A stretch of DNA of 64,000 nucleotides, from NCBI GenBank assembly GCA_017686895.1, contig GCA_017686895.1_4521.1, one strand, 5' to 3'. The notes under the pieces were generated by a model, which ran no database searches, was not told where the DNA came from, and was given only the letters and a program-made list of their open reading frames with translations. The stretch comes from a phage. The position numbers were made by a program, and so were the translations under genes. Below, one piece after another: positions 8,566 through 56,953 of this stretch. Every line of letters begins with the position of its first letter. Positions within the stretch are counted from its first letter, which is position 1.

Positions 8566-8584
8566 AAATTGTATTGAGGTAAAT

Positions 8585-9301: not shown

Positions 9302-10200
9302 TGGCTATTTTCCGCGTACCAATCTTGAGTATGCGGTCTTATGAAACTGGACAGTATGCTATCCTTAAGGATGGCAACTTCCAACTTCATTTGCACCGTG
9401 CTAATCCAGGTGATGTGATTACATATCCACGTAATGCATCTGATATTAAAGAATGCGAACGTCTTTTCCCAGAATTTAAGTTTGTTCCATTATGGTATAA
9501 AGATAACGCGTATAACACTCGTAAATATTTCTGGTCTGAAAATGAATTTGTGGTTGATTCATTAATTGCTTATTATGATTGTGATTTTCTAATCACAGAT
9601 ATCACCGGATATGACGGCGCTTTTGATGTGGAATTCAATTTCAATATCACTGCAGACCCTAATAAACCACGTTTTTATATTGACGAATTCTTAAAAACTG
9701 ATATGTTGTCGGTTAATCGTTCACTTCAAACTACTGTGTTGAATGAACGTCAAAAAGAAGTGCTGGTTAACGCAGGTGCAGATGGTAATAAGATTATCGT
9801 AACGCAGAAAGTTATACGTCCTTCCATCATGCAGCGTCTTGTAGGTGATTTGGCTCCTATTCATCTAGATGGTATTTTTCATCCATTTCGAATTAGTGAC
9901 CCGTGCTATCGTTTTGAACAAGTGGTTGAATGTGCAATTCAATTAGGCCAACCGCTTTATATAACCGATCCAAATAATAGCTTCGACAGAAATAAGTATC
10001 CTGAAGAAGCATTGATTCGAATTTTTAAACCAACTAAAACTGAGTACTATCAAATTCTTAAAGGACGTCCGAAGATTCAATATTTCGAAAATCCTGAAGA
10101 AGTATTCCATCCAGGTCTTGGTGAGTTCATCTACTTTAATGCTTTAATTTCTTCGCCGTATAATATACCTAAATATGAAGATGTCGTAATCGAGGAATAA
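9301..10200 (+). CDS. Hypothetical protein (occupies the T4 beta-glucosyltransferase position)
   Basis: 299-aa ORF, TAATG coupled to the hydroxymethylase gene; no recognisable motif. Confidence 0.55.
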   Translation: MAIFRVPILSMRSYETGQYAILKDGNFQLHLHRANPGDVITYPRNASDIKECERLFPEFKFVPLWYKDNAYNTRKYFWSENEFVVDSLIAYYDCDFLITDITGYDGAFDVEFNFNITADPNKPRFYIDEFLKTDMLSVNRSLQTTVLNERQKEVLVNAGADGNKIIVTQKVIRPSIMQRLVGDLAPIHLDGIFHPFRISDPCYRFEQVVECAIQLGQPLYITDPNNSFDRNKYPEEALIRIFKPTKTEYYQILKGRPKIQYFENPEEVFHPGLGEFIYFNALISSPYNIPKYEDVVIEE

Positions 10201-10201
10201 A

Positions 10202-10750
10202 ATGGCTAAAATTATTTTAGTAGATGGCCCGGATAATGCTGGTAAAACAACTTTCATTAATGACATAATGGAAATTAGTGAAAGATATGTAAAGATTGAT
10301 TTCCCTAAACGAACAGTTGATGGACGTTTCGATGTTAAGTCTCGAAATGAAGTTGGCTGTTTCGAAACTATGTTGAATTATTTAGACCCTACTAAGATTT
10401 ATCTATTAGACCGTGGATATATTAGTAACTGGGTTTATGGACGTATTCGACAAGATGCGGACTCGGTTCTTGACGTTTATGAACAGGATTATGTTCGTCT
10501 TTGCCAAAACCATGATGTGTTCACAATTATTTTAACACGTAACGAAATGACTGAAAGTTTTGAAGACGACCTTATTACTTTGTCTTCATTCGGTTTTAAT
10601 ACAGTAATTTCACATTTTGAAGAGTTTGCAATTCATAACGAAATCCAAACGTATCAATTACTTAATCATGATGGTGCTAACAAAGTTATAGGATTTAATG
10701 CAAGCGAACGTAATAATTTGATTACAGAAATCATCAAATGGGCTCGTTAA
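10202..10750 (+). CDS. P-loop NTPase, nucleotide/nucleoside kinase-like
   Basis: Walker A GPDNAGKTT near N-terminus; 182 aa. Confidence 0.55.
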   Translation: MAKIILVDGPDNAGKTTFINDIMEISERYVKIDFPKRTVDGRFDVKSRNEVGCFETMLNYLDPTKIYLLDRGYISNWVYGRIRQDADSVLDVYEQDYVRLCQNHDVFTIILTRNEMTESFEDDLITLSSFGFNTVISHFEEFAIHNEIQTYQLLNHDGANKVIGFNASERNNLITEIIKWAR

Positions 10751-10767
10751 GAGCCATTTAAAGTTTT

Positions 10768-10795
10768 AAATGCTGTATAACCCTTAGTATATAAT
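10768..10795 (+). promoter_or_regulatory. Candidate middle promoter for uvsX (MotA-box-like AAATGCTGTA plus TATAAT)
   Basis: Box 12 bp upstream of TATAAT 10790-10795. Confidence 0.4.
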
Positions 10796-10848
10796 CATCT
10801 TATCTTTTAAACATGAGTAAAATATAATGATGCCTATGGAAAAATACA

Positions 10849-12021
10849 ATGTCTGATTTAAAATCTCGTCTGATTAAAGCTTCTACTTCTAAAATGACTG
10901 CAGACTTGACTAAGTCTAAGCTGTTTAATAATCGTGATGAAGTCCCTACTCGTATTCCAATGTTGAATATTGCACTAGGTGGTGCACTGAATGCAGGGTT
11001 GCAATCAGGCTTAACTATTTTTGCTGCTCCTTCTAAACATTTTAAAACGTTGTTTGGGCTGACCATGGTTGCAGCATATATGAAGAAATATAAAGATGCA
11101 ATCTGTTTGTTTTATGACTCAGAATTCGGTGCTTCAGAATCTTACTTCCGTTCGATGGGTGTTGATTTAGACCGTGTAGTTCATACTCCGATTCAATCCG
11201 TCGAACAACTTAAAGTTGATATGACTAATCAGCTTGACGCGATTGAACGCGGCGATAAAGTTATTATCTTTATCGATTCAATCGGTAATACTGCATCTAA
11301 GAAAGAAACCGAAGATGCGTTGAACGAGAAAGTTGTAGGTGATATGTCTCGTGCTAAGGCACTTAAATCTCTTTTCCGTATTGTGACTCCTTATCTGACT
11401 ATTAAAGATATTCCGTGTGTTGCAATTAACCATACTGCAATGGAAATTGGCGGATTGTATCCTAAAGAGATTATGGGCGGTGGTACAGGTATTCTTTATT
11501 CCGCCAACACGGTATTTTTTATCTCTAAACGTCAGGTTAAAGAAGGTACAGAATTGACCGGTTATGACTTCACGTTGAAAGCAGAAAAATCTCGTACAGT
11601 TAAAGAGAAATCTACTTTCCCGATCACGGTTAATTTCGACGGTGGTATCGACCCATTCAGTGGCTTGTTAGAAATGGCAACTGAAATCGGTTTTGTGGTT
11701 AAGCCTAAAGCTGGTTGGTATGCTCGCGAATTCCTTGACGAAGAAACAGGTGAAATGATTCGTGAAGAAAAATCATGGCGTGCTAAAGCTACTGATTGTG
11801 TAGAATTCTGGGGACCTTTGTTTAAACATAAGCCTTTCCGTGACGCAATTGAAACTAAATATAAACTAGGTGCTATCTCTTCTATTAAAGAAGTTGATGA
11901 CGCTGTTAACGACCTTATTAATTGCAAAGCAACAACTAAAGTTCCGGTTAAAACTTCTAATGCTCCGTCTGCAGCAGATATAGAAAACGACCTTGACGAA
12001 ATGGAAGATTTCGATGAATAA
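10849..12021 (+). CDS. uvsX: Recombinase UvsX (RecA-like)
   Basis: 390 aa; syntenic with T4 uvsX; RecA-type Walker motifs. Confidence 0.92.
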   Translation: MSDLKSRLIKASTSKMTADLTKSKLFNNRDEVPTRIPMLNIALGGALNAGLQSGLTIFAAPSKHFKTLFGLTMVAAYMKKYKDAICLFYDSEFGASESYFRSMGVDLDRVVHTPIQSVEQLKVDMTNQLDAIERGDKVIIFIDSIGNTASKKETEDALNEKVVGDMSRAKALKSLFRIVTPYLTIKDIPCVAINHTAMEIGGLYPKEIMGGGTGILYSANTVFFISKRQVKEGTELTGYDFTLKAEKSRTVKEKSTFPITVNFDGGIDPFSGLLEMATEIGFVVKPKAGWYAREFLDEETGEMIREEKSWRAKATDCVEFWGPLFKHKPFRDAIETKYKLGAISSIKEVDDAVNDLINCKATTKVPVKTSNAPSAADIENDLDEMEDFDE

Positions 12022-12355
12022 TCTCGATGATTTAAATCTAGAAATCGTTGATGAATCCCCTTCTTCGGAAGGGGAGGACATTCGCAAAGAACGAGTGTTT
12101 AATGAATCTCTTAAAATTATCCGTTCAGCAATGGAAAATGTCATTCAAGAGATTCTGATTACACTTGAAGACGGTTCCCATCATATAGTCTATATTACAA
12201 AACTAGACTGGGTTGATGGTAAAATCGTAATGGACTTTGCAGTTCTTGACCAGGACAGAAAAGCAGAACTTGCACCACACGTTGAAAAATGTGTTACAAT
12301 GCAAGTACAACAAGCTTTTAATGAACGAACCAAGAAAAAATTTAAATTCTTTTAA
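11993..12355 (+). CDS. 40: gp40-like protein
   Basis: 120-aa ORF between uvsX and 41 as in T4. Confidence 0.5.
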   Translation: MTKWKISMNNLDDLNLEIVDESPSSEGEDIRKERVFNESLKIIRSAMENVIQEILITLEDGSHHIVYITKLDWVDGKIVMDFAVLDQDRKAELAPHVEKCVTMQVQQAFNERTKKKFKFF

Positions 12356-12364
12356 GGAGTTATC

Positions 12365-13807
12365 GTGGTAGAAATTATTTTGTCTCATCTAGTATACGAC
12401 CAGGCTTATTTTTCTAAGGTCTGGCCTTATATGGATTCTGACTATTTTGAGCGTGGACCGGCAAAAAATGTCTTTAAAATTATAAAGAGCCACGTTAACG
12501 AATATAATGCAATGCCATCTATCAATGCGTTAAAGGTGGCTTTAGATAACAGTTCTTTAACTGAAGCCGAATATAAAGGAACTTCAGACCTAATTGAAAA
12601 ATTGGCTGATACTCCTGAAGACCATGAATGGTTGGTTAAAGAAACTGAGAAATATATCCAGCAAAAAGCGATGTATAATGCTACATCCAAAATCATTGAG
12701 ATTCAGTCTAATGCTGAACTACCTCCGGAACAACGTAACAAGAAAATGCCTGACGTAGGAGCTATTCCTGATATTATGCGTCAAGCACTTTCAATTTCGT
12801 TCGATAGTTATGTTGGGCATGACTGGATGGAAGACTATGAAGCACGTTGGCTTTCTTATCTAAATAAAGCACGTAAGGTCCCGTTCAAATTAAACATTTT
12901 GAATAAAATCACCAAAGGCGGCGCAGAAACAGGTACACTAAACGTTTTAATGGCTGGTGTTAACGTCGGTAAATCTTTAGGCCTTTGTTCACTTGCTGCA
13001 GATTATCTTCAAACAGGTCATAATGTTCTTTATATTTCCATGGAAATGGCTGAAGAAGTTTGTGCTAAGCGTATAGATGCAAACATGCTTGACGTATCAC
13101 TCGATGATATCGATGATGGTAACATATCTTATGCTGAATATAAAGCCAAGATGGAAAAATGGCGTTCAAAAACAACATTAGGACGTTTAGTAGTTAAACA
13201 GTATCCTACTGGCGGAGCTAATGCTAATACATTCCGTGCATTGCTTAATGAGTTAAAACTTAAGAAGAACTTTGTGCCATCTGTAATCATGGTTGATTAC
13301 TTAGGTATTTGTGGGTCTTGTCGTATCAGAGTTTACACTGAAAATAGCTACACATTAGTTAAAGCTATCGCAGAAGAACTTCGTGCATTAGCAGTAGAAT
13401 CTGAAACAGTTCTATGGACTGCAGCTCAAGTAGGACGTGCAGCATGGGATGCTTCAGACATGAACATGAGTGATATCGCAGAATCAGCAGGTTTACCAGC
13501 AACGGCAGATTTCATGTTGGCTGTAATTGAAACCGAAGAACTTGCACAAGCTGAACAACAACTTATCAAACAAATCAAATCACGATACGGCGATAAGAAT
13601 AAGTGGAATAAATTCCTGATGGGTGTACGTAAAGGCAATCAGAAATGGGTTGAGATTGAGCAAGAAGGCATGAACACACCTAACACAGTAAATGAAAACG
13701 CAGGTGCTCAGATGCGTCAGGCAGAGGTGAATCGTACGGAACGCGTAGGTAAAGCCAAAGCAACACGTGCTGACCTAGATAGCTTAGCCAATGAGTTAAA
13801 ATTTTAA
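12365..13807 (+). CDS. 41: Replicative DNA helicase gp41 (DnaB-like)
   Basis: 480 aa; starts MVEIILSHL like T4 gp41; GTG start codon 7 nt after AAGGAG. Confidence 0.93.
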   Translation: MVEIILSHLVYDQAYFSKVWPYMDSDYFERGPAKNVFKIIKSHVNEYNAMPSINALKVALDNSSLTEAEYKGTSDLIEKLADTPEDHEWLVKETEKYIQQKAMYNATSKIIEIQSNAELPPEQRNKKMPDVGAIPDIMRQALSISFDSYVGHDWMEDYEARWLSYLNKARKVPFKLNILNKITKGGAETGTLNVLMAGVNVGKSLGLCSLAADYLQTGHNVLYISMEMAEEVCAKRIDANMLDVSLDDIDDGNISYAEYKAKMEKWRSKTTLGRLVVKQYPTGGANANTFRALLNELKLKKNFVPSVIMVDYLGICGSCRIRVYTENSYTLVKAIAEELRALAVESETVLWTAAQVGRAAWDASDMNMSDIAESAGLPATADFMLAVIETEELAQAEQQLIKQIKSRYGDKNKWNKFLMGVRKGNQKWVEIEQEGMNTPNTVNENAGAQMRQAEVNRTERVGKAKATRADLDSLANELKF

Positions 13808-13813
13808 TAAAAA

Positions 13814-13829
13814 GGAGACTTCGGTCTCC
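13814..13829 (+). terminator. UUCG-tetraloop hairpin (GGAGAC-TTCG-GTCTCC) after gene 41
   Basis: Perfect 6-bp stem, TTCG loop, followed by TTT. Confidence 0.5.
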
Positions 13830-13836
13830 TTTCGGG

Positions 13837-13866
13837 GTTTACATCTTCCTCTAGGCATGATATGAT
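13837..13866 (+). promoter_or_regulatory. Early-type promoter GTTTAC-N18-TATGAT
   Basis: Spacer contains TTCCTCT, complementary to the downstream SD AGAGGAA (13883-13889). Confidence 0.5.
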
Positions 13867-13895
13867 GTACTTACACAAACCAAGAGGAAAACATT

Positions 13896-14270
13896 ATGAA
13901 TATGTCTCAAGCAATTTTTACTGCAATCACCGAAAACACAACTGTTGAAGTAGTTTCTCCGCTGGCAACCTACGTTATTCTTGCTCCTAAAACTATTGTA
14001 TCTCGTATGGAAAACACAGGCAAACGTATCGTACAAATAGTTGGAGCTGGAAATCAAAAACTTGATTATCTACGAACCATCAAAGCTTACGAACATTTCC
14101 AACTCGAAAAAGGTTCTCCTATCCAGGTAGAACTCGTAAATGGTGATATCGTTCGAGCAATGTTCCATCATTTCTATGCATTGAATGACCCATCTAAAGC
14201 GGTTCGTTTAATTGCATATGACGCAAACCAAAACGAAATCAACGCAGATATATCTAAATTACATTTTTAA
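13896..14270 (+). CDS. Hypothetical protein
   Basis: 124-aa ORF with SD AGAGGAA. Confidence 0.5.
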   Translation: MNMSQAIFTAITENTTVEVVSPLATYVILAPKTIVSRMENTGKRIVQIVGAGNQKLDYLRTIKAYEHFQLEKGSPIQVELVNGDIVRAMFHHFYALNDPSKAVRLIAYDANQNEINADISKLHF

Positions 14271-14299
14271 GTTTACTTCTCCAGTAGTTGTGTTATTAT
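14271..14299 (+). promoter_or_regulatory. Early-type promoter GTTTAC-N17-TATTAT embedded in a 12-bp inverted repeat
   Basis: Arms CTCCAGTAGTTG (14279-14290) and CAACTACTGGAG (14308-14319) flank the -10; the downstream arm contains the SD. Confidence 0.55.
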
Positions 14300-14325
14300 A
14301 GACCTATCAACTACTGGAGAACAAA

Positions 14326-14643
14326 ATGAAAACCATCGATTGTAAAGCAGAATTTAAGATTTTTTATCACGGTTCAAGTAGTTCAGCTAACATCGAAAAC
14401 ATGCTTTGTCCTCCTGAAGAAACAGGAGTTCTGTCTGAAACTGGACGTAAGAAAAACTTGGATCGTGTATTCTTTACTGAAGATATCGGTTTAGCAAAGA
14501 TTTATGCAGGACGAGCAGCACGCTCTTATGGAGGTGAACCACGTCTCTATCGAGTAATTTCTCCGGTAGATGTAGTTCAAATGAATGATACTAAAGGCGC
14601 TACAGTTTATCACGCTGAATGGGCATTTTGCGAGGAAATATGA
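14326..14643 (+). CDS. Hypothetical protein
   Basis: 105-aa ORF. Confidence 0.5.
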   Translation: MKTIDCKAEFKIFYHGSSSSANIENMLCPPEETGVLSETGRKKNLDRVFFTEDIGLAKIYAGRAARSYGGEPRLYRVISPVDVVQMNDTKGATVYHAEWAFCEEI

Positions 14644-14831
14644 GCAAATTAACTAAAGTTACTTTTATCGGTTGGTTTAAAAGCGGTGAGATGTTCACTA
14701 AAGATATCATGTTATCAGGTGATCGCGAAGAAATCGAGTGGGTTACGGTACAACTTGCTGAAGTGAACAATGCATTAGTTAAAGCATTTATTAATGACGA
14801 GAAAGTTTTTGAAGCTGATTTCAGAGGATAA
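14640..14831 (+). CDS. Small protein, possibly Dmd (61.5)-like antitoxin
   Basis: 63 aa from ATG 14640 (SD GAGGAAA, ATGA overlap); position next to gene 41 and motifs KVTFIGWF, NALVKAFI resemble my uncertain recollection of T4 Dmd. Confidence 0.35.
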   Translation: MSKLTKVTFIGWFKSGEMFTKDIMLSGDREEIEWVTVQLAEVNNALVKAFINDEKVFEADFRG

Positions 14832-14832
14832 T

Positions 14833-15045
14833 ATGTATTCAACTGTGTTTAAACCATCAACATACGAATTTGCATCAACTACACAATGGAAAGCTCTTAT
14901 TCTGGAAGGATGGGAACTAATGATGGACTGCGAAGCATCTGAAAAGTTTCCACACGGCAAAGTGGACTTCGTTAAATTTGCTGTACGTCCGACTAAACGA
15001 CAGATTCGTCAAGAAAAACGCAAATTTCGAAAAAGTTTAAAATAG
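14833..15045 (+). CDS. Hypothetical protein
   Basis: 70 aa from ATG 14833 (SD GAGGA); basic C-terminus. Confidence 0.4.
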   Translation: MYSTVFKPSTYEFASTTQWKALILEGWELMMDCEASEKFPHGKVDFVKFAVRPTKRQIRQEKRKFRKSLK

Positions 15046-15047
15046 CT

Positions 15048-15077
15048 GTTTACAAGCACCACATACTGTGTTACTAT
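15048..15077 (+). promoter_or_regulatory. Early-type promoter GTTTAC-N18-TACTAT
   Basis: Followed by the CTATCAACTAC element shared with the 14300 promoter. Confidence 0.4.
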
Positions 15078-15105
15078 CTTTCTATCAACTACAGAGGAAA
15101 TTGAA

Positions 15106-15474
15106 ATGAAAAAATTAATCGCTTTAGCAATGGTATTTGGATTAACCGGATGTGGTGCCCATGGCTTTATCCCTAATAACGTCGGCCAATTGATTTACAA
15201 TCCGAATGTTAAACAGTACGACCAACCTAAAGTTGAAGTGGAAGACCCGGTTACTGTAGGTAATCGAATGATTCAAGCTGATGCCCATGCTCAACGTTAT
15301 CGTGACTCTGATACCGTAGCATTGTCAAAAGAACAACGCGTTAAAGAACATTGTCTACAGGCTACTGAAATCGCATTCATTCGCTATGTTGAAACAACTG
15401 GTAAAGAGCCTACCCAGAAACAAATCGCGAATAACTACGTCCAGTGTATTGAACGTTTAAACAAATTTAATTAA
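15106..15474 (+). CDS. Putative lipoprotein
   Basis: Signal peptide with lipobox LTGC (MKKLIALAMVFGLTGCG). Confidence 0.6.
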   Translation: MKKLIALAMVFGLTGCGAHGFIPNNVGQLIYNPNVKQYDQPKVEVEDPVTVGNRMIQADAHAQRYRDSDTVALSKEQRVKEHCLQATEIAFIRYVETTGKEPTQKQIANNYVQCIERLNKFN

Positions 15475-15535
15475 TTGGTTTACACCAAAGTTAAAATAAG
15501 ATACTATAAACATAACAAATCAAGAGGAAATTAAC

Positions 15536-15784
15536 ATGGAATTATTCGTAGCTAGTTCAGTAGCAGTTTTAATCGCAGGTATTGGTTCAATCATCATTTA
15601 CATGTTGCCTTGGGTAATCGCACTTATTCGTGGCACAAAAAGCACAACAGCAATCTTCTTTGTATCTTTACTCTTTAACTGGACGATGGTTGGTTGGATT
15701 GGAACTTTAATTTGGTCTATCGTTGCCGAAAAGAAATCTGCTCAGCAGCCTCAACAAGTAATTATTATTCGCGAAAAAGAATAA
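15536..15784 (+). CDS. Superinfection-immunity (Imm)-family small membrane protein
   Basis: YMLPWVIALIRG...NWTMVGWIGTLIWSI matches the Imm-family signature as I recall it. Confidence 0.55.
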   Translation: MELFVASSVAVLIAGIGSIIIYMLPWVIALIRGTKSTTAIFFVSLLFNWTMVGWIGTLIWSIVAEKKSAQQPQQVIIIREKE

Positions 15785-15788
15785 ACTT

Positions 15789-15818
15789 GTTTACATTATA
15801 GATGGACTATAGTATAGT
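15789..15818 (+). promoter_or_regulatory. Early-type promoter GTTTAC-N18-TATAGT
   Basis: Followed by AGTCCTATCAA box; imperfect inverted repeat GGACTA/TAGTCC around the -10. Confidence 0.45.
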
Positions 15819-15847
15819 AGTCCTATCAAATTAACTAAGGAGTTAAA

Positions 15848-16141
15848 ATGAAAAAGTTATCATTGGCAGCAATCTTACTTGCAGTATCATGTGCACCGGC
15901 TCCAGTTACGGCAGGTTATGATAAAGACCTCTGTGAGTGGTCAATGACTGCAAATCAAGAAGATGTTGAACAACAAATCTTCTCTGATATCATGAACATC
16001 ACTAAACGAGACCGTCCTAATATGGTTAATAAAGTTGTTGAACAACTTAAGTCTGGCGGTATCATGCAGTACAATTATGTTTTGTATTGTGACCCTAATT
16101 TCGATAACAAAGATATCGTAACCGAAATCACAGGTGAATAA
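15848..16141 (+). CDS. Secreted small protein, Spackle (sp/61.3)-like by size and position
   Basis: 97 aa with N-terminal signal peptide (MKKLSLAAILLAVSCAPA); T4 sp is about this size in this interval. Confidence 0.4.
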   Translation: MKKLSLAAILLAVSCAPAPVTAGYDKDLCEWSMTANQEDVEQQIFSDIMNITKRDRPNMVNKVVEQLKSGGIMQYNYVLYCDPNFDNKDIVTEITGE

Positions 16142-16793
16142 TATGATTTATTACATGCACAAAAACGCACCATTTAAATATGGTAAATTTCCTAATGCAC
16201 AATGTTATAATATAACGCCGAACGAAAATAATAACGGATATCATATTGGTGTAATTTTTGTAATTGTTAAAGATAACGAAATCGTTGCCTGGGCCGATTT
16301 TAAAGGTACAACATATGATGTTAATCCTGTGCCTTTCACATATTACAATATAATGGATTTGGCATATGATTATAATTGGTTTAATCATGACGCGTTGGCT
16401 CATATTGAAGGTGTAGGATTTGACATCTCTTATTCTAGCTATTCATTATGTCCTATGAGCAGGGCTCATGGTAAAGATGCATCATATCTTTCATTTCGGA
16501 AACGTGTAAACTTCAAACGTAGTACAGAGTATGTTGGCGGACTCTTTGTTAAAGATAATAAAATAACCCGTATTAGTTATCCTTTAAGTGTAGGTCAAAA
16601 AGATGTTGATGTTGATTTAGACTTAACTGAAAATAACATTAATCGTATTGCTTCTGTATATTTTGATATCGATGAAAAAATTGTAGTGTGTGGATACGAA
16701 TTACCACCTGAAGAAAAGGCTGAAGCAGTTGAAGTCGAATTAGAAATTTCTGTTGATGACCAAATATTTAATGCATTTATGAATCGAGGTTAA
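16134..16793 (+). CDS. Hypothetical protein (61.2 position)
   Basis: 219-aa ORF. Confidence 0.5.
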   Translation: MNNMIYYMHKNAPFKYGKFPNAQCYNITPNENNNGYHIGVIFVIVKDNEIVAWADFKGTTYDVNPVPFTYYNIMDLAYDYNWFNHDALAHIEGVGFDISYSSYSLCPMSRAHGKDASYLSFRKRVNFKRSTEYVGGLFVKDNKITRISYPLSVGQKDVDVDLDLTENNINRIASVYFDIDEKIVVCGYELPPEEKAEAVEVELEISVDDQIFNAFMNRG

Positions 16794-16794
16794 A

Positions 16795-16992
16795 ATGACT
16801 ACTGCAATTTGCACTGGTTCTAAAATTAGTGTTTTTACAAGTTTTGAAGATTATGAAGTTGTTTCAAAACACCAACGCCATATTAGCGTAAAAGCTAATG
16901 ACGGTGTAATTTGGAATATTCCACAGTATGAAGGCACTACATATGAAGTCACAGATATAAATGGTGACAAAGCAATCTTTGTAATTGATTAA
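16795..16992 (+). CDS. Hypothetical protein
   Basis: 65-aa ORF. Confidence 0.4.
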   Translation: MTTAICTGSKISVFTSFEDYEVVSKHQRHISVKANDGVIWNIPQYEGTTYEVTDINGDKAIFVID

Positions 16993-17011
16993 ATATACTC
17001 AGGAGGTACCT

Positions 17012-17479
17012 ATGGGTATTATTAACACTGCAATAGATTCTGTTTACGCATATAAGTTTATTCGACTAATGCAAAAACCTTTTACTGAATGGAAAGCGTA
17101 TGAAGCCAAAATCATCGATGAACGTGGGAGTGTTCTTAAACGCCCTTCCACTCCTGAAGAGAAAGCGGCTTATACACCTTTTCATGCTTCAGTTCGTTCA
17201 ATGAAGCGAATGATGAGCACTGTTCCAGGTCTTAATGGAATGGCCTCAATGATGTCTGCCTGGAGTGCTGTAGCTTCACGCTATAACATTACGGAAGAAC
17301 AACAGAAAGAAATATTTAAAGAACTCCCTTTATTTGAGGATATGGTTGCTGGTGATTCAGGTGGCAGCCCTCAAGCTATTGCATCAGGAACAACTACAGG
17401 TGCAGTAGTAAATAAAGGTCCAGAACAAATTCCTTCCAAGAAAAGAAAGCGAATTAAAGTAAATATTAATAAGTTGTGA
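17012..17479 (+). CDS. Hypothetical protein
   Basis: 155 aa from ATG 17012 (SD AGGAGG). Confidence 0.5.
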   Translation: MGIINTAIDSVYAYKFIRLMQKPFTEWKAYEAKIIDERGSVLKRPSTPEEKAAYTPFHASVRSMKRMMSTVPGLNGMASMMSAWSAVASRYNITEEQQKEIFKELPLFEDMVAGDSGGSPQAIASGTTTGAVVNKGPEQIPSKKRKRIKVNINKL

Positions 17480-17518
17480 TATGATGGCCTTATTAATTTA
17501 AGGCCTCTGGAGAATACT

Positions 17519-18541
17519 ATGGCTGAATGGATAGATAATGAATTTGCTTATCGTGCGTTTTCTCACCTACCTCGTTTTAGACAAATCAATAATTCAAGCA
17601 CATTTAAATTAACATTTCGATGTCCAGTTTGTGGCGACTCCCAGACAGATGCAATGAAAGCTCGCGGATGGTATTATGGTGGAACTCCAGGTAATGTGCA
17701 TTGCTATAACTGTCAATATCATAATACAATTTCCGGATACTTAAAAGAGTATGATGAAGAGCTTTATCGCGAATATCTAATGGAAGTTCGTAAAGAAAAA
17801 GCTAGAATGGAACCAAAGATTGAAAAGGTTCCTGAAGCTAAGCCGGAACCAGAGAAAAAGACTATAAATTCTTTGCCGTCTTGTTCTCGTCTGGACAAGC
17901 TGCCCGAAGAGCATCCTATTGTGAAATATGTTAAGTCTCGGTGTATTCCTAAAGAATCATGGAACAGATTATGGTTCACATTAGAATGGCCTAAATTGGT
18001 CAACAAGATTCAACCTGGTACGTATAAGAAAGAGATTCCCGAACCACGTTTAGTGATTCCTATTTTTAATAAAGATGGGAAGGCCGAGTCATTCCAAGGA
18101 CGTGCACTTCGTAAAGATGCTCCTCAGAAATATATCACTATTAAAGCGTTTGAGTCTGCAACAAAAATTTATGGTGTTGAACGTGTTAAGGAAGGGGACG
18201 TCTGGGTAATGGAAGGCCCTATTGATAGTTTATTCATACCCAATGCAATCGCTATTACAGGCGGCTCGATAGATTTAGATGTGGTACCATTTAAAGAACG
18301 TCGGGTATGGGTAATGGATAATGAACCTAGGCATCCGGATACTATAGCTCGTATGAAGCGATTAGTTGATGCAGGCGAACGTGTCATGTTCTGGGACCGA
18401 GCTCCATGGAGATCAAAGGATGTGAATGATATGGTAATGAAAGAAAATGCAACACCACAAGAAATTTTAGAATATATGAAACAGAATATTTCAAGTGGGT
18501 TGCATGCTAAAATGAGATTATCTCGTTATTCGAAGATTTAA
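17519..18541 (+). CDS. 61: DNA primase gp61
   Basis: 340 aa; zinc-ribbon CPVCGDSQTD...CYNCQYHN; syntenic with T4 61. Confidence 0.9.
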   Translation: MAEWIDNEFAYRAFSHLPRFRQINNSSTFKLTFRCPVCGDSQTDAMKARGWYYGGTPGNVHCYNCQYHNTISGYLKEYDEELYREYLMEVRKEKARMEPKIEKVPEAKPEPEKKTINSLPSCSRLDKLPEEHPIVKYVKSRCIPKESWNRLWFTLEWPKLVNKIQPGTYKKEIPEPRLVIPIFNKDGKAESFQGRALRKDAPQKYITIKAFESATKIYGVERVKEGDVWVMEGPIDSLFIPNAIAITGGSIDLDVVPFKERRVWVMDNEPRHPDTIARMKRLVDAGERVMFWDRAPWRSKDVNDMVMKENATPQEILEYMKQNISSGLHAKMRLSRYSKI

Positions 18542-18735
18542 ACAAGCCCTATAATAGCAAAGGCCAAATCAACTACAGTATCCAATGGAACAGAAGGAAC
18601 TATAATACCATGGGCAACTAACAATGGTGCAATCCCGAAGTTCCATGAAATAATGCCACCTACAACTATTGCAGCGATGGCAGTTTTCTTTTTATTGCCT
18701 TTAATAGCGTTGATTAACGACGGAAGTTTAAACAT
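18538..18735 (-). CDS. Small hydrophobic protein on the minus strand
   Basis: 65-aa ORF with strong SD (AAGGAG 7 nt upstream), two predicted membrane segments; convergent with gene 61. Confidence 0.4.
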   Translation of the reverse strand: MFKLPSLINAIKGNKKKTAIAAIVVGGIISWNFGIAPLLVAHGIIVPSVPLDTVVDLAFAIIGLV

Positions 18736-18823
18736 AATATCTCCTTAGTTACCTATTATTTATTACGCTTTATAAAATTAATGTTAGAATTAACTCTCTT
18801 ATACTGAATTGAAAGGAAAAATA

Positions 18824-19345
18824 ATGGCGCACTTTAATGAATGTTCACAACTTATTTCTGGTGTTGATAAAGCAGAAGAAGTTTATTTTAATGCTCTGAT
18901 TCACGAAGATAAAGACCCACTTCAGGTAATGCTTGATATGCAGAAATCTTTACAGGTTCGTCTGGCAAATGACAAGCCTGAACATAACAAACATCCTGAT
19001 GAATTGGCTACTGCTGGTGATGTTGTTGATTGGCTGCGTAATCAGAAAGATTATATTGATGATGAATTCCGTGAACTGTTGACTTCACTTGGTGGTATGA
19101 GCAATGGTGAAAAAGCCGCCAGCAGTGTATGGAAGCCTTGGAAAGCACAACATGCTGAATATCGAAATCGTCGTATCGATGAACTGTCTCCTGAAGACCA
19201 GCTTGAAATTAAATTTGAGATGATTGATATTCTTCATTTCGTTCTGAATATGTTCCAAGGTCTGGGTCTTTCTGCTGAAGAAATCTTTAAACTTTACTAC
19301 TTGAAAAACCAACACAACTTTGAACGTCAGGATAATGGTTACTAA
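18824..19345 (+). CDS. 56: dCTPase/dUTPase gp56 (MazG-like)
   Basis: Starts MAHFNEC like T4 gp56; DKDPLQVMLDMQ, FRELLTSLG, EEIFKLYYLKN conserved. Confidence 0.85.
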   Translation: MAHFNECSQLISGVDKAEEVYFNALIHEDKDPLQVMLDMQKSLQVRLANDKPEHNKHPDELATAGDVVDWLRNQKDYIDDEFRELLTSLGGMSNGEKAASSVWKPWKAQHAEYRNRRIDELSPEDQLEIKFEMIDILHFVLNMFQGLGLSAEEIFKLYYLKNQHNFERQDNGY

Positions 19346-19351
19346 TTAAGT

Positions 19352-19359
19352 TATAAATA
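19352..19359 (+). promoter_or_regulatory. Late promoter TATAAATA upstream of soc
   Basis: Exact T4 late consensus about 30 nt before soc ATG. Confidence 0.55.
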
Positions 19360-19390
19360 CACCTGTAATTAAACAACAAAGGAGTTAATT

Positions 19391-19627
19391 ATGGGTGGTT
19401 ATGTAAACATCAAAACCTTTACGCATCCTGCTGGTGAAGGCAAAGAAGTTAAAGGTATGGAAGTTTCTGTTCCGTTTGAGATTTATTCAAACGAACATCG
19501 GATTGCAGATTCTCATTACCAAATCTTTCCATCAGAAAAGGCAGCTTATTCTACTGTAGTTTCTAATGCAGCTGACTGGAAAACTAAGAACGCTGAAATG
19601 TTTACCCCTACACCAGTAAGTGGTTAA
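19391..19627 (+). CDS. soc: Small outer capsid protein Soc
   Basis: 78 aa; GYVNIKTF, HYQ.FPSEKAAYSTV match recalled T4 Soc. Confidence 0.8.
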   Translation: MGGYVNIKTFTHPAGEGKEVKGMEVSVPFEIYSNEHRIADSHYQIFPSEKAAYSTVVSNAADWKTKNAEMFTPTPVSG

Positions 19628-19635
19628 ATAATTTA

Positions 19636-19660
19636 AGGAATCCTTCGGGATTCCTTTTTT
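19636..19660 (+). terminator. Rho-independent terminator (AGGAATCC-TTCG-GGATTCCT plus T-run) after soc
   Basis: 8-bp stem, UUCG loop, TTTTT tail. Confidence 0.7.
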
Positions 19661-19728
19661 CGTTTCTAGAGTTTACATCCACTAAAAACTATGTTAAGAT
19701 ATTCTTACTTACTCAAGAGGAGAACATT

Positions 19729-19956
19729 ATGTTAAATCGTTGGATTAAACCTAATAACACATTAGGTGCTTTGATTGCTCAAGAAGTTTCGTTGAAATAC
19801 GGCCTTGGATATTATGATGACGTAGTCGTACACTCATTCATGATGGATGGTGAAGACGTCAAATTTAATGCCGAAATCCGTTGGGATGATGGTGGTGTTC
19901 GTTTTGTTCGAGGAACAATTAATGCTTACGATGCTGAAGAAGTTATTTGTTGTTAA
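19729..19956 (+). CDS. Hypothetical protein
   Basis: 75-aa ORF with SD GAGGAGAA. Confidence 0.45.
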   Translation: MLNRWIKPNNTLGALIAQEVSLKYGLGYYDDVVVHSFMMDGEDVKFNAEIRWDDGGVRFVRGTINAYDAEEVICC

Positions 19957-19969
19957 ACCAGGCGAAGGT

Positions 19970-20158
19970 ATGATGCCTATTCCTGATACACATGAAAAAA
20001 GTTGGGAATATATTGGTGACGGCATGATGGAAGAAGTTATTCGTCCTAAGTCTGCTTCAAGCTCTTCAAGTTATAATCATTCTTACGTATCATCCTGGTC
20101 TGGAGATTCTGGTTCAAGTTATTCTGATTGTAGTTCGGACTCAGGGAGCTGCGAATGA
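19970..20158 (+). CDS. Hypothetical protein with Ser-rich C-terminal tail
   Basis: 62 aa from ATG 19970 (SD GAAGG). Confidence 0.35.
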   Translation: MMPIPDTHEKSWEYIGDGMMEEVIRPKSASSSSSYNHSYVSSWSGDSGSSYSDCSSDSGSCE

Positions 20159-28652: not shown

Positions 28653-29078
28653 ATGGCTTTTAAAGGTTTTGAAGTTGGTAAGAAATATCGTATTATCAAA
28701 GGTCAAGAAGATAATTTCTTGAGAATTCTTAATACGACCGGTAAACGTCTTAATACTAATCTGCATACTACTTTATTGTCCAAAGATTTTATTGTGGAAG
28801 AGATGATTGGTTACGGTGTTTCGGTTATTGCTGTAGAAGCCGTAGGCGATTATGGTCGAACTATTCATAGTATGCAAGGTGATATTCTGCTTTATGGTGC
28901 AGAATTTAAATTCTTTGAAGAAGTTCCGGAACCAGATACATCTGTCGATTTCAAAAAAGGCTCTATAGAATTTGTTGATGGATCGGTGATCGTATCAGGC
29001 GATGTGGTCATTACAGTTAAAAGTGAACAAGGGCGTTTGGCTGTAATTGATGCACTTCAGAAAATTAAATTTAAATAA
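28653..29078 (+). CDS. Hypothetical protein
   Basis: 141-aa ORF. Confidence 0.5.
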   Translation: MAFKGFEVGKKYRIIKGQEDNFLRILNTTGKRLNTNLHTTLLSKDFIVEEMIGYGVSVIAVEAVGDYGRTIHSMQGDILLYGAEFKFFEEVPEPDTSVDFKKGSIEFVDGSVIVSGDVVITVKSEQGRLAVIDALQKIKFK

Positions 29079-29095
29079 GGGCTTCGGCCCTTTTT
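29078..29095 (+). terminator. Rho-independent terminator (AGGGC-TTCG-GCCCT plus TTTTT)
   Basis: Overlaps the stop codon of the upstream gene. Confidence 0.6.
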
Positions 29096-29141: not shown

Positions 29142-30959
29142 ATGATTAAAAACGAAATTAAGGTATTGTCAGATGTAGAACATATTAAGAAACGTAGTGG
29201 TATGTATATTGGTTCTTCGGCTAAAGAAGCACATGAGCGTTTTTTGTTTGGTAAATATCAACAAGTTGAATATGTTCCTGGTCTGGTTAAATTAATCGAT
29301 GAGATTATTGACAACTCGGTTGATGAAGCTATTCGTACATCATTTAAGTTTGCAAATAAAATTGATGTGCAAATTAAAAATAATCAAGTTTCGGTGGAAG
29401 ATAACGGACGTGGTATTCCTCAAGGTTTAGTTACTGACCAAACAGGTGAACAAATTCCTGGGCCTGTAGCAGCCTGGACTATTCCAAAGGCCGGTGGTAA
29501 CTTTGGTGATGATTCTGAACGCAAGACTGGTGGTATGAACGGCGTCGGGAGTAGTTTAACTAATATCTTCTCTACGTTGTTTACAGGCATCACGTCAGAT
29601 GGCGAAAATGAAATCACTGTTAACTGTTCAAACGGAATGGAAAACAAATCATGGTCTTCTAAGAAATCTAAAGGTAAAGGCACTAAAGTAATCTTCACTC
29701 CTGATTTCACTTCATTTGAAGAGAATAATTTATCTCAAATTTATTTAGATATTACTTTAGACCGACTTCAAACATTGGCAGTTGTTTATCCTGATATCAA
29801 GTTCACATTTAATGGTAAAAAGGTTGATGGTAATTTTAAACGATTTGCTAAACAATTTGGTGAAGATAACATCATTCAAGAAAATGATAAAGTCTCTATA
29901 GCATTCACAACATCACCAGATGGCTTCCGTCATTTAACTTATGTGAATAACATCCATACTAAAAATGGTGGTCATCATGTTGAATGTGTAATGGATGATA
30001 TTTGCGAACATCTTTTACCGGGTATTAAAAAGAAATATAAGGGTATTGAAGTCACTAAAGCTCGTGTTAAAGAATGCCTCACAATGTTGATGTTTATTAG
30101 AGACATGAGCAATATGCGTTTTGATTCTCAGACTAAAGAACGTTTAACGTCAACGTATGGTGATATTCGTAATCATATCCAATTAGATGCTAAGAAAATT
30201 GCTCAGGCACTTCTTAAAAACGAAGCCTTGATTATGCCTATTGTTGAAGCAGCATTAGCTCGTAAATTGGCAGCAGAAAAGGCTGCAGAAACTAAAGCAG
30301 CTAAAAAGGCAACTAAAGCTAAGGTTCATAAGCATATTAAAGCTAACCGATGTGGTAAAGATGCAGATACGACATTGTTTTTAACAGAAGGTGATTCGGC
30401 AATTGGTTATCTCATTGATGTTCGTGACCGTGAACTACACGGTGGATTCCCATTACGTGGTAAGGTGATGAATAGCTGGGGTATGTCATATGCTGATATG
30501 ATGAAGAACAAAGAGCTCTTTGATATCTGTGCTATCACAGGTCTTATTCTTGGTGAAAAGGCAGAGAATACGAACTATCGTAATATTGCAATTATGACTG
30601 ATGCAGATCACGACGGTCTTGGAAGTATCTATCCGGCTTTGCTTGCTTTCTTTAGTAATTGGCCTGAATTGTTTGAACAAGGACGTATTCGCTTTGTTAA
30701 AACGCCTGTAATTATTGCACAAATTGGCAAAACTCAAAAATGGTTTTATACTGTAGCTGAGTATGAAGAAGTTAAAGATACACTGCCTAAGCATAGTATT
30801 CGATACATCAAGGGATTAGGCTCCCTTGAAAAGTCAGAATATCGTGAAATGATTCAGAACCCTGTGTACGACGTAGTTAAACTTCCTGAAAATTGGAAAG
30901 AACTCTTTGAAATGTTGATGGGTGATGATTCAGAACTTCGTAAAGAATGGATGTCCTAA
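29142..30959 (+). CDS. 39: DNA topoisomerase II large subunit gp39 (GyrB-like, single unsplit ORF)
   Basis: 605 aa with GHKL ATPase (VEDNGRGIP) and Toprim (LTEGDSA, DADHDG) in one frame; T4 splits this into 39 and 60. Confidence 0.92.
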   Translation: MIKNEIKVLSDVEHIKKRSGMYIGSSAKEAHERFLFGKYQQVEYVPGLVKLIDEIIDNSVDEAIRTSFKFANKIDVQIKNNQVSVEDNGRGIPQGLVTDQTGEQIPGPVAAWTIPKAGGNFGDDSERKTGGMNGVGSSLTNIFSTLFTGITSDGENEITVNCSNGMENKSWSSKKSKGKGTKVIFTPDFTSFEENNLSQIYLDITLDRLQTLAVVYPDIKFTFNGKKVDGNFKRFAKQFGEDNIIQENDKVSIAFTTSPDGFRHLTYVNNIHTKNGGHHVECVMDDICEHLLPGIKKKYKGIEVTKARVKECLTMLMFIRDMSNMRFDSQTKERLTSTYGDIRNHIQLDAKKIAQALLKNEALIMPIVEAALARKLAAEKAAETKAAKKATKAKVHKHIKANRCGKDADTTLFLTEGDSAIGYLIDVRDRELHGGFPLRGKVMNSWGMSYADMMKNKELFDICAITGLILGEKAENTNYRNIAIMTDADHDGLGSIYPALLAFFSNWPELFEQGRIRFVKTPVIIAQIGKTQKWFYTVAEYEEVKDTLPKHSIRYIKGLGSLEKSEYREMIQNPVYDVVKLPENWKELFEMLMGDDSELRKEWMS

Positions 30960-30975
30960 GCTCCTTCGGGAGCTT
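30958..30975 (+). other. UUCG-tetraloop hairpin (AAGCTCC-TTCG-GGAGCTT) overlapping the gene 39 stop
   Basis: 7-bp perfect stem; weak U-tract. Confidence 0.5.
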
Positions 30976-35583: not shown

Positions 35584-35604
35584 GGGGACTTCGGTCCCCT
35601 TTTT
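35584..35604 (+). terminator. Rho-independent terminator (GGGGAC-TTCG-GTCCCC plus TTTTT) after rIIB
   Basis: Perfect 6-bp GC-rich stem, UUCG loop, T-run. Confidence 0.75.
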
Positions 35605-35618
35605 CTTTAGGGGTAATT

Positions 35619-36411: not shown

Positions 36412-36441
36412 GTTTACAACTAAGTAGGACTATGATATAGT
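36412..36441 (+). promoter_or_regulatory. Early-type promoter GTTTAC-N18-TATAGT
   Basis: Followed by AGTCCTATC box. Confidence 0.45.
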
Positions 36442-36467
36442 AGTCCTATCTAAAAGAGGATAACATC

Positions 36468-36923: not shown

Positions 36924-36953
36924 GTTTACATCATGGTAGGATTATGGTATAGT
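36924..36953 (+). promoter_or_regulatory. Early-type promoter GTTTAC-N18-TATAGT
   Basis: Followed by AGTCCTATCAA box. Confidence 0.45.
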
Positions 36954-36981
36954 AGTCCTATCAAAACACGAGGAATACAAA

Positions 36982-37184: not shown

Positions 37185-37221
37185 TTGTACAAACTCTTGA
37201 GAGCAGAGTATAATGCTCTCA
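37185..37221 (+). promoter_or_regulatory. Promoter-like element TTGTAC-N18-TATAAT with flanking inverted repeat
   Basis: TGAGAGC (37198-37204) and GCTCTCA (37215-37221) bracket the -10. Confidence 0.4.
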
Positions 37222-37705: not shown

Positions 37706-38048
37706 TTTATATAGGCCTATTAAGTTAGGCCTTTAATTTATTTTTGAGGTAATTAAAATGGTAGCATGGATTATTGCATTGCTGTGTTGGTCGTTTTTAT
37801 TCGTTAGCACTTTAGTTACAGGCGAAACAACAGTATTTCAACAGGCCGTATCACAAGGTACCTTAGCGGTCTTAGCTCTTATTAACGTGTTAAAAGGCGA
37901 GTAATGATTAAGAAAATCTTAGCAGGAGCCTTCGGGCTCTTGTTGTTGCTTACGGTTCTGTATTATGGTGTGATGTTTGGACTAATCCAAGTGGTGCTTT
38001 TCATTTCAGATGTTATAATGGTTATTCGTTCATTAATATGGTGAAAAT

Positions 38049-39374: not shown

Positions 39375-39450
39375 GTGCCCTAGCCTTAGGATTTCTCAGT
39401 GCAATAGCTGCACTAGTGATTTGGCTGTATTGGTTGGACAATCATGATTA

Positions 39451-39470
39451 GGGAGCTTCGGCTCCCTTTT
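39451..39470 (+). terminator. Rho-independent terminator (GGGAGC-TTCG-GCTCCC plus TTTT)
   Basis: Perfect stem, UUCG loop, T-run. Confidence 0.7.
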
Positions 39471-44140: not shown

Positions 44141-44156
44141 AGGGCCCGAAGGCCCT
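44141..44156 (-). other. UUCG-tetraloop hairpin between genes 37 and 38
   Basis: On the minus strand AGGGCC-TTCG-GGCCCT, followed by SD GGAGG of gene 38; no U-tract. Confidence 0.5.
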
Positions 44157-48099: not shown

Positions 48100-48119
48100 A
48101 AAAGGAGACCGAAGTCTCC
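48100..48119 (-). terminator. Rho-independent terminator after gene 35 (GGAGAC-TTCG-GTCTCC plus TTTT)
   Basis: Perfect hairpin on the minus strand directly after the gene 35 stop. Confidence 0.6.
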
Positions 48120-48120
48120 T

Positions 48121-49245
48121 TTATTCTGTGTACTCTTTAAATTCCTGCCCAAATACCTTACCTGTGTCGTTAGATAACTGAGTAGGCAAGTCCATTATAT
48201 CATTACCGGTTAATGATTCATCGATGTAATTAGCACGAATACCATTTAGGCCAAACTCGGCAGGTTTTGCTATACTTCCGTTACATGATACTTCAGTGAA
48301 AATAACATTTCTTAGTCCACCTTGACCGACTGGGACCGTACGGTAACAATATACTGTAAAGCCATCGGCTTCAGCTGGTATTTCAACGTATTCTTCATAT
48401 AGCTTCCACACTCCAGCAGTTCCGTCAAAGTTTATATCTTTAGATGATATAGGAGAGCTAGATGGAGACTTAAAGAAACGAATTGAAAGTCTTGTGGTTC
48501 CTTCCTCTAATAATTCTTCATCAGCCATTAATTGAAATTTCAAATAAAGAAAATCTGTAGGCTTTAATCCATAGTTTGCGATAGGAGTAACAAGGGATGA
48601 TGTAGGCATCCTTTTTATTTCATTGTTAGTTCCTCCAACAGGAGATAAAAACGTTTCTAGAGCTTCATATGTACGTCTAGGATAGCCGGTAGCACCTATA
48701 TCAGCAATAGAGTCATATACAATATCTAATGGAGTTGAGTAATCAGAAATTGTTTTCTTATTACTGTATTTTATGTGTTCTAATGCAATAGTATTTTTAC
48801 CTGAAACATAAAACGCCGAATATGAAATATCAACAAGACTAGCAACTTCAATTGACGGTATAACTGAACTCCCAGCAGCTTTAAACCATTCAATTATTTC
48901 TGGCGGCAAATTAAATTTGTTATTAGAAATAAATGCGAAAATGAAATTATCTGCGTATGTATTAACAAACGAAATAAATGCAGCTGAAGTTGCATTATTT
49001 GTAGGCGCAAAATTGTATAATTTACTATCAACTATAGTTCCATTTTCCGGATTTATTACCCTAACATTTAGTCCAATACCAAAAGACTGCAACCCTAAAG
49101 GCTCATTTTGGAACAAAATATACGGATTAGTTGTTGAAAGCGGGCATGAACCCGCTATACTTAGTTTAAATCTAACTGAATTGCTTTCCGATAAAAACGG
49201 CGTTTGGACGTATCCCTGTCCAAACCTTGCCATAAATTTTTCCAT
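48121..49245 (-). CDS. 35: Long tail fiber proximal connector (hinge) gp35
   Basis: 374 aa (T4 gp35 about 372); position between 34 and 36. Confidence 0.85.
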   Translation of the reverse strand: MEKFMARFGQGYVQTPFLSESNSVRFKLSIAGSCPLSTTNPYILFQNEPLGLQSFGIGLNVRVINPENGTIVDSKLYNFAPTNNATSAAFISFVNTYADNFIFAFISNNKFNLPPEIIEWFKAAGSSVIPSIEVASLVDISYSAFYVSGKNTIALEHIKYSNKKTISDYSTPLDIVYDSIADIGATGYPRRTYEALETFLSPVGGTNNEIKRMPTSSLVTPIANYGLKPTDFLYLKFQLMADEELLEEGTTRLSIRFFKSPSSSPISSKDINFDGTAGVWKLYEEYVEIPAEADGFTVYCYRTVPVGQGGLRNVIFTEVSCNGSIAKPAEFGLNGIRANYIDESLTGNDIMDLPTQLSNDTGKVFGQEFKEYTE

Positions 49246-56390: not shown

Positions 56391-56412
56391 GGGAGACTTC
56401 GGTCTCCCTTTT
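56391..56412 (+). terminator. Rho-independent terminator after gene 32 (GGGAGAC-TTCG-GTCTCCC plus TTTT)
   Basis: 7-bp perfect stem, UUCG loop, T-run. Confidence 0.75.
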
Positions 56413-56890: not shown

Positions 56891-56927
56891 TTTATAACAA
56901 GATAGGGTTATGTTATAGTAGCCCTAT
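56890..56927 (+). promoter_or_regulatory. Early-type promoter GTTTAT-N18-TATAGT with flanking inverted repeat
   Basis: G of the -35 is the last base of the TAG stop; ATAGGGTTA / TAGCCCTAT arms bracket the -10. Confidence 0.45.
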
Positions 56928-56953
56928 CAAATAAAAGTGAAGAGGAGAATAAA

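Follow-up and report, generated by a model that had tools for sequence, protein, structure and literature searches.

Gene content of the window and its UUCG hairpins

The window analysed here is a 64,000-nt stretch of phage DNA (NCBI GenBank assembly GCA_017686895.1, contig GCA_017686895.1_4521.1). Just past the stop codon of its rIIB gene lies a short G+C-rich stem-loop with a UUCG loop, one of a set of such hairpins found throughout the window. The rIIB gene belongs to a first block of plus-strand genes, which begins with 44, 62, regA, 43 ... uvsX, 40, 41 ... soc, in the same order as in phage ATK48, and continues with 39, rIIA, rIIB, denB, ndd, ac, 52, motA ... asiA. The late tail-fibre genes form the sole minus-strand block (t, 38, 37, 36, 35 and 34), and a second plus-strand block comprises rnh ... 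32, frd, td, nrdA, nrdB and denA. Intergenic sequence makes up 6% of the window.

A 12-kb piece of the window was 97.6% identical to ATK48 across its full length. ATK48 is classified in the Straboviridae, Tevenvirinae, Mosigvirus, and is an RB69-like relative of T4. Judged from this match and from the ATK48-like gene order, the window is from a T4-like Mosigvirus (RB69/ATK48-like), and the T4-like affiliation proposed for this DNA in a first-pass annotation, made from the letters alone, is borne out. Gene 39 (29142-30959, plus strand) is a single 605-aa ORF, a 39+60 fusion as in RB69, and the translational bypass of T4 gene 60 is therefore absent from the window. In T4 the take-off hairpin of that bypass, near T4 coordinate 2847, is also of the C(UUCG)G type.

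The whole window was scanned on both strands for TTCG loops closed by a perfectly paired stem of 5 bp or more, which yielded 12 matches on the plus strand and two on the minus strand. These 14 hairpins compare with a mean of 0.74 and a maximum of 4 in 300 dinucleotide shuffles. Moreover, TTCG is the most frequent tetraloop on the plus strand, where it accounts for 12 of 121 hairpins, the runner-up loop being found in four. All eleven hairpins listed in the first-pass annotation were recovered to within 1-2 nt, and three further matches were found, at 12056, 37926 and 59540. The match at 59540 looks like a chance occurrence, since its sequence (CAATA-TTCG-TATTG) is A+T-rich, has a ΔG of 0, is closed by an A-U rather than a C-G pair and lies inside an ORF. 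The genuine set thus comprises 13 G+C-rich hairpins, every one of which has a UUCG loop and a C-G closing pair (Table 1).

The stems had been described as near-identical, with either GGGAC or GGAGAC as the 5' arm. This proved to be only partly correct, as six of the eleven listed hairpins carry one of these two stems and the other five do not (GGAATCC, AAGGGC, AAGCTCC, AGGGAGC and AGGGCC). Exact matches to GGGACTTCGGTCCC are located at 1375, 35585 and 63537 on the plus strand, and exact matches to GGAGACTTCGGTCTCC at 13814 and 56392 on the plus strand and 48104 on the minus strand; for both sequences the chance expectation is none (100 shuffles). When folded in 40-nt contexts, the minimum-energy structure is the hairpin itself, with energies of -9.4 to -17.2 kcal/mol (z-scores of -1.2 to -4.2), although the ViennaRNA energies include a tetraloop bonus and so provide no independent test of the extra stability of UUCG. 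No Rfam family matched anywhere in the window at gathering thresholds, as is expected for hairpins so short.

Table 1. The 13 G+C-rich UUCG hairpins of the window (MFE in kcal/mol; d, terminator discriminant; ATK48, label in the ATK48 GenBank record where one is specified)
Site	Span	Strand	Hairpin and adjoining sequence	Placement	U-tract	Scores	T4 copy	ATK48
regA end	1372-1391	+	AATGGGAC-UUCG-GUCCCAUU, then GGAGTATAAT	starts 3 nt past regA stop, 58 nt before gene 43	weak, no real U-tract	MFE -11.7, z -2.9, d negative	29962	
inside gene 40	12056-12075	+	UCCCCUUC-UUCG-GAAGGGGA	codons 15-21, 34 nt past uvsX stop	absent	MFE -17.2	22340	
gene 41 end	13811-13832	+	AAAGGAGAC-UUCG-GUCUCCUUU, short U run	starts 3 nt past stop	weak			ARNold terminator
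soc end	19635-19656	+	AAGGAAUCC-UUCG-GGAUUCCUU, then UUUUCGUUUC	starts 7 nt past soc stop	present	T=4.76, d=+21.6	15315	
ORF upstream of 39	29077-29092	+	AAGGGC-UUCG-GCCCUU, then UUUGCUUU	overlaps ORF stop	present	d=+11.2	AAAGGCC-UUCG-GGCCUUU at 5391	ARNold terminator
gene 39 end	30958-30975	+	AAGCUCC-UUCG-GGAGCUU	overlaps gene 39 stop	weak, interrupted (CAUUUUAAUUUU)	d=-13.8		ARNold terminator
rIIB end (focal)	35584-35608	+	GGGGAC-UUCG-GUCCCC (35584-35599) + UUUUUCUUU; next sequence TTTTTCTTT	starts 5 nt past stop	present	d=+31.3, z -2.9		
ac end, inside ORF 52.1	37920-37945	+	UAGCAGGAGCC-UUCG-GGCUCUUGUUG, perfect core 37926-37939	21 nt past ac stop		MFE -16.5		ARNold terminator
gene 52 end	39450-39467	+	AGGGAGC-UUCG-GCUCCCU, then UUUGUGCAUUUU	75 nt past gene 52 stop	present	d=+16.8, z -3.6		'Rho independent terminator'
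gene 37-38 junction	44141-44156	-	AGGGCC-UUCG-GGCCCU, then directly GGAGG, 5 nt, gene 38 AUG	starts 3 nt past gene 37 stop	absent	d=-29.2		
gene 35 end, upstream of 36	48101-48122	-	AAAGGAGAC-UUCG-GUCUCCUUU, then UCGCG + TATAAATA	overlaps stop	borderline	z -4.2		
gene 32 end	56391-56408	+	GGGAGAC-UUCG-GUCUCCC, then UUUUGAGU	starts 6 nt past stop	present	d=+8.3, z -3.4		ARNold terminator
nrdB-denA junction	63530-63561	+	GGGAC-UUCG-GUCCC (63537-63550), 8 nt, denA AUG at 63559	nrdB UAA overlaps SD-like AAGGA	absent	d=-43		

A separate hairpin, AGAC-AAUAACUC-GUCU, is located at 1422-1437 on the plus strand, 13 nt ahead of the AUG of gene 43, and agrees with the 16-base translational operator hairpin published for RB69-type gp43, whose loop contains UAAC. 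The possibility that the operator is instead the UUCG hairpin at 1372 was considered and rejected, the operator being this UAAC-loop hairpin.

Strand, position and sequence context

All 13 hairpins are on the transcribed strand, including the two on the minus strand, which fall within the only block of genes read in that direction. The sequence CTTCGG is present 14 times on the sense strand, where 13 copies have flanking complementarity and form the hairpins, and 17 times on the antisense strand, where none does. Thus a single sense-strand copy lies outside a hairpin, and the complement CCGAAG is found 17 times in ordinary sequence. These counts hint that free CUUCGG may be avoided in the mRNA.

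The placement of the hairpins at gene ends, as had been claimed for them, was confirmed. Eleven of the 13 are intergenic. For ten of these the start is -2 to +7 nt from a stop codon, the exception being the more distant copy beyond gene 52. Of the 21 stable hairpins found on the sense strand of the intergenic DNA, 11 belong to this set. The two other copies are also found a short distance past a stop codon, that of uvsX or ac, but within the first codons of ORFs 40 and 52.1, respectively.

The hairpins were scored as potential terminators by U-tract content and by a discriminant, d, which reportedly stems from a 1990 analysis by d'Aubenton-Carafa. The formula was combined with modern energy parameters, so the values are approximate and the borderline calls (35, 41, 39 and regA) are soft. 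The earlier statement that some of the hairpins have U-tracts and others lack one held on both measures, with a U-tract and a positive discriminant coinciding at five sites (Table 1). By these scores about five or six hairpins look like intrinsic terminators, namely those at soc, rIIB, 32, 52, upstream of 39 and perhaps 35, with the soc hairpin as the best candidate of the set. The hairpins inside gene 40, at the 37-38 junction and at the nrdB-denA junction fall clearly among the non-terminators on the same measures.

In the ATK48 GenBank record, 10 of the 13 hairpins are annotated as putative terminators; the T4 GenBank record has no terminator features. Terminator predictors label some UUCG hairpins that are inside ORFs or translation start regions and, in the annotation of T4-like genomes, not every UUCG hairpin should be taken for a terminator. 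An automated terminator scan of positions 1-20000 returned 12 candidates compared with 11.5 in shuffles, which is no enrichment, and the soc hairpin was the sole UUCG hairpin flagged on the plus strand. A literature search found no published 3'-end maps of T4-type phages (Term-seq or cappable-seq). With respect to promoters, an early-promoter-like sequence (TTTACA-17-TATGAT) is located at 13838-13866, 6 nt after the gene 41 hairpin, and the TATAAATA sequence downstream of the gene 35 hairpin is the late-promoter consensus.

At the 37-38 and nrdB-denA junctions the hairpin would instead form part of the translation start region of the downstream gene. Split start regions, in which the SD and the AUG are separated by a hairpin, are described for T4 genes 38 and 25 (PMC3014915). 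In T4 a C(UUCG)G hairpin at 159633 is positioned between the SD (AAGGAG) and the AUG of gene 38, and this is the hairpin of the published gene 38 split start region. Gene 38 of the window does not require the split layout, since an ordinary GGAGG lies downstream of the hairpin and ahead of the AUG.

The nrdB-denA junction of the window has the order UAAGGA, hairpin, ACUUUAUU and AUG, with no other SD between the hairpin and the AUG. In 19 of 20 distinct junctions across lineages the same succession was found, that is a stop codon, GGA or GGAG, the hairpin, 3-9 nt and the AUG, and the distance from stop to AUG is nearly constant (24-32 nt). This conserved layout points to the same device for denA: as in the T4 gene 38 and 25 starts, the SD is upstream of the hairpin and the AUG shortly downstream, and the hairpin would loop out the spacer between the two. 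The nrdB-denA junction may be a third split SD-hairpin-AUG start region in T4-type phages, and no earlier description of one for denA was found in the literature searched. In the minimum-energy fold, however, the denA helix is extended by pairing of UAAGG with CUUUA, and an alternative is that this predicted longer helix masks the SD rather than presenting it. As regards the start codon itself, the T4 GenBank record (AF158101, positions 137951-137955) has denA beginning at a GTG within the 5' arm of the hairpin (giving 144 aa), and PDB chain 2WSH_A has seven residues ahead of MKEIA. The downstream ATG is the start that is conserved in 19 of 20 lineages, and the window has no equivalent of the upstream start.

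Conservation of position and structure in T4-like phages

Searches of viral contigs with rIIB, gp32 and gp41 supplied 149 loci, in which the stops of the upstream genes were placed by tblastn. The comparison with T4-like genomes that had been suggested in the first-pass annotation showed that the gene-end positions of the hairpins are kept even though the flanking proteins are only 35-85% identical. At the soc end, 37 of 38 distinct orthologous sequences have both a hairpin and a U-tract, and the nrdB hairpin is kept in 19 of 20 distinct junctions. At the rIIB end a hairpin is present in 18 of 21 distinct sequences, with GGGGAC, AAGGGC, GGAGGC, GGGGC or AGGGAC as the stem, and is followed by a U-tract in some lineages only. 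The retention of the rIIB hairpin in lineages that lack the U-tract means that termination is not the sole function under selection. Position is also conserved at 35, 32, 37 and regA and, in some lineages, at 41, while hairpins at the gene 39 and ac ends were seen solely in close relatives. In T4 itself, C(UUCG)G hairpins are present at the orthologous regA-43, uvsX-40, soc, upstream-of-39 and gene 38 start positions, as well as at the gene 60 bypass.

The stems at orthologous ends differ between lineages. Those at the regA-43 junction include GGGGC, GGGAC, GGGC and GGACC, and those at the gene 32 end GGAGCC, GGGACC, GGAACC and GGAGAC. At the 35-36 junction, where the order of stop, hairpin, U run and TATAAATA is kept in most orthologues, the stems are GAGAC, GAGCC, GGACC, AGCCC and GGGCC. 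In alignments of the nrdB, 35 and rIIB sites, four to five of the six stem pairs have changed on both sides and the closing C-G pair is invariant; since the aligned sequences were picked by a hairpin finder, the percentage paired is partly circular, but the compensating substitutions at a fixed position are not. Indeed, the gene 41 site (13811-13845 in the window) displays a complete path from a G-C through a G-U to an A-U pair, the stems being GGAGGC/GCCTCC in locus L140, GGAGGC/GTCTCC in locus L141 and GGAGAC/GTCTCC in the window, with the downstream TTTCGGGGTTTAC unchanged throughout.

Over all sites there are about 115 distinct combinations of site and stem, and 66 of them have UUCG as the loop; UUUG, UCCG, GAAA and GCAA are among the other loops that occurred at least three times. 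In 1.9 Mb of related loci CTTCGG is the most frequent closed tetraloop, with 209 occurrences on the strand of the query gene compared with 24 on the other strand, and it still ranks first where gp32 is only 36-45% identical. Taken together, the comparative data show selection to act on structure and loop, and not on stem sequence.

Most T4-like lineages retain a stable hairpin inside gene 40, 31-60 nt past the uvsX stop and within the first 15-25 codons. Its loop varies (UUCG, UCAG, GAAG, GGAA, GAAA, or loops of 3-5 nt). The encoded peptides are quite different in several lineages (SPSSEGE, EESSDEDS and EAPKGAS), which points to RNA-level selection within the coding region. Some stems are also found at unrelated gene ends of the same genome, as observed in IMGVR_UViG_2706795394, in 2974666281 and in the window: GGACC (41, 35 and 32), GAGAC (35, 32 and nrdB) and, in the window, GAGAC (41, 35 and 32).

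Interpretation and relation to known elements

The best explanation, to which a probability of roughly 85% is assigned, is that the hairpins are independent, position-specific RNA stem-loops in phage mRNAs, capped by C(UUCG)G and nearly all located just past stop codons, with a job that depends on context. The cap would allow a helix of 5-9 bp to fold fast, and to stay folded, in an A+T-rich transcript; as it stabilises such a short helix, selection could have converged on this cap in many places. Hairpins with a U-tract behind the stem (those of soc, rIIB, 32, 52 and the ORF before 39) would serve as intrinsic terminators or leaky attenuators for host RNA polymerase, a role that probably extends to 35 and, more weakly, to 41, 39 and regA. 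A terminating hairpin would close a transcription unit, and the next promoter, early or late, often lies a short way beyond it. In addition, any of the hairpins, terminating or not, could form a 3' block to 3'-to-5' exonucleases and so shield the upstream cistron, which would explain the copies just past uvsX and ac in spite of their position within the following ORF.

Exchange of sequence between sites was considered in two forms. The milder is that UUCG stems at unrelated sites have occasionally been copied or homogenised within a genome, by short-patch gene conversion or by exchange of terminator cassettes. Exact matches of the stem top (3-5 pairs next to the loop) were counted at non-orthologous sites within genomes, with permutation of genomes within sites as the reference, and were about twice as frequent as in the permuted data. 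The window itself had been chosen for its UUCG hairpins, and the test was hence rerun with the window excluded; 19 matches were then obtained compared with 10.3 (p about 0.002), in lineages that are not fully independent of one another. This excess is modest, but it is unexplained by purely independent, site-by-site evolution, and it is read as a lineage-level stem preference or as rare copying, and not as evidence for a repeat family. A test of mean identity was marginal for the top five pairs (p=0.07) and gave no signal in the lower stem or the flanks. Because the similarity within genomes stops at the stem top, the idea of a copied cassette was downgraded, and occasional copying is considered unlikely. 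Were it correct, the hairpins would in part be a dispersed family, and might offer micro-homologies for module shuffling, as has been proposed for the promoter-early stem-loop (PeSL) cassettes.

The stronger form is that a single short dispersed repeat (of the REP, MITE or PeSL-like kind) has given rise to all the hairpins, having been spread or homogenised within the genome by recombination or gene conversion, their gene-end positions being those where insertions are tolerated. Such a repeat would fit the occurrence of three GGGAC-TTCG-GTCCC and three GGAGAC-TTCG-GTCTCC copies in one window, the identical 22-mers at 13811 and 48101 and the excess of stem-top identity, and a genuine shuffling cassette, the PeSL, does exist in T4-type genomes. 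However, the 28-nt flanks are barely more similar to each other than are random segments of the window (0.294 compared with 0.267), a slight difference that is consistent with the stop codons and A+T-rich spacers which they have in common. Moreover, no target-site duplications or insertion-like patterns of presence and absence were seen, and the sites are conserved in position across genera while their stems change in place, with a G-U intermediate among them. The combination of compensated stems with the same loop at orthologous ends and non-homologous flanks points to position-specific RNA structures and not to a mobile repeat. The dispersed repeat family proposed in the first-pass annotation is thus not supported, and is regarded as improbable; the similarity of the stems can mostly be put down to shared constraints, namely a purine-rich 5' arm, the C-G closing pair and the UUCG loop.

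Another view is that the hairpins, rather than being generic structural blocks, are sites specifically recognised by an RNA-binding protein or processed by a nuclease, such as a phage endoribonuclease acting at GGAG; this is very improbable. The GGAG motif is present in the 5' arm of five of the 13, and sequence-specific RNA regulators of T4 are represented in the region by regA, within the window, and by the gp43 operator just downstream of the 1372 hairpin. The stems at orthologous sites nevertheless vary freely and only the loop and closing pair are kept, and a review reports that no proteins bind the UUCG tetraloop, which moreover makes no RNA-RNA contacts. The gp43 operator, for its part, is not one of the 13 but the UAAC-loop hairpin at 1422-1437. 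Finally, although each element is a near-perfect palindrome and several share sequence, the view that they are DNA palindromes (cruciforms, protein-binding sites, or recombination or replication signals) whose RNA folding is incidental is scarcely credible, because the coding strand carries TTCG and not CGAA in 13 of 13 cases (binomial probability about 1e-4), an orientation that follows transcription as a DNA palindrome would not, and because the asymmetric loop is the most conserved part across lineages, all of which identifies them as RNA elements.

Position-specific RNA stem-loops of this kind can be compared with several known systems. Like the intrinsic terminators of E. coli RNA polymerase, those at soc, rIIB, 32, 52 and the ORF before 39 consist of a G+C-rich stem and a U-tract at a gene end, and the next promoter often follows the hairpin. 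Unlike such terminators, at least three of the hairpins have no U-tract and several have only 3-4 U. The REP elements of E. coli form a genuine repeat family, in which a sequence of about 35 nt is conserved, and REP/BIME hairpins are 3' stabilisers of E. coli mRNAs. The proposed action as 3' exonuclease barriers between cistrons is common to REP/BIME and to the UUCG hairpins, but the latter are far smaller and, outside the cap, have no sequence in common.

PeSLs, the stem-loop cassettes of T4-type phages that have been linked to gene shuffling (PMC2839356, PMC4122927), are likewise short stem-loops of intergenic regions, with many copies in T4-type genomes. They carry an early promoter -10 box in or beside the loop and share extended sequence, whereas the UUCG hairpins share only stem composition and loop, are located upstream of promoters and are conserved in position. 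PeSL-like loci were also observed on the plus strand of the window, at 15804-15823, 36424-36449, 36934-36963, 37198-37221, 56901-56928 and 63976-63994; in these, of which GTAGGACTAT-GATATA-GTAGTCCTAT is an example, a -10-like TATA(A/G)T is found in or beside the loop and extended sequence is shared. Most of the remaining stable sense-strand intergenic hairpins of the window are of this type.

The UUCG hairpins of the window are members of the C(UUCG)G class of Tuerk et al. (1988) and are, as a class, already known. Three papers that take up this work (PMC4371310, PMC8948821, PMC7165471) describe the hairpins as unusually stable and abundant in intergenic regions of T4, as stopping reverse transcriptase and as linked to several processes. 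The present analysis matters mainly as a sanity check, in that a textbook RNA motif first noticed in T4 mRNAs has been rediscovered from raw sequence; current understanding is unchanged. A re-analysis of T4 found the hairpin context on the sense strand only, and this restriction, the loop, the C-G closing pair and the intergenic location are all shared between the T4 hairpins and those described here. Nothing essential sets the two apart; the phage in this case is a Mosigvirus, so the stems and some of the sites differ.
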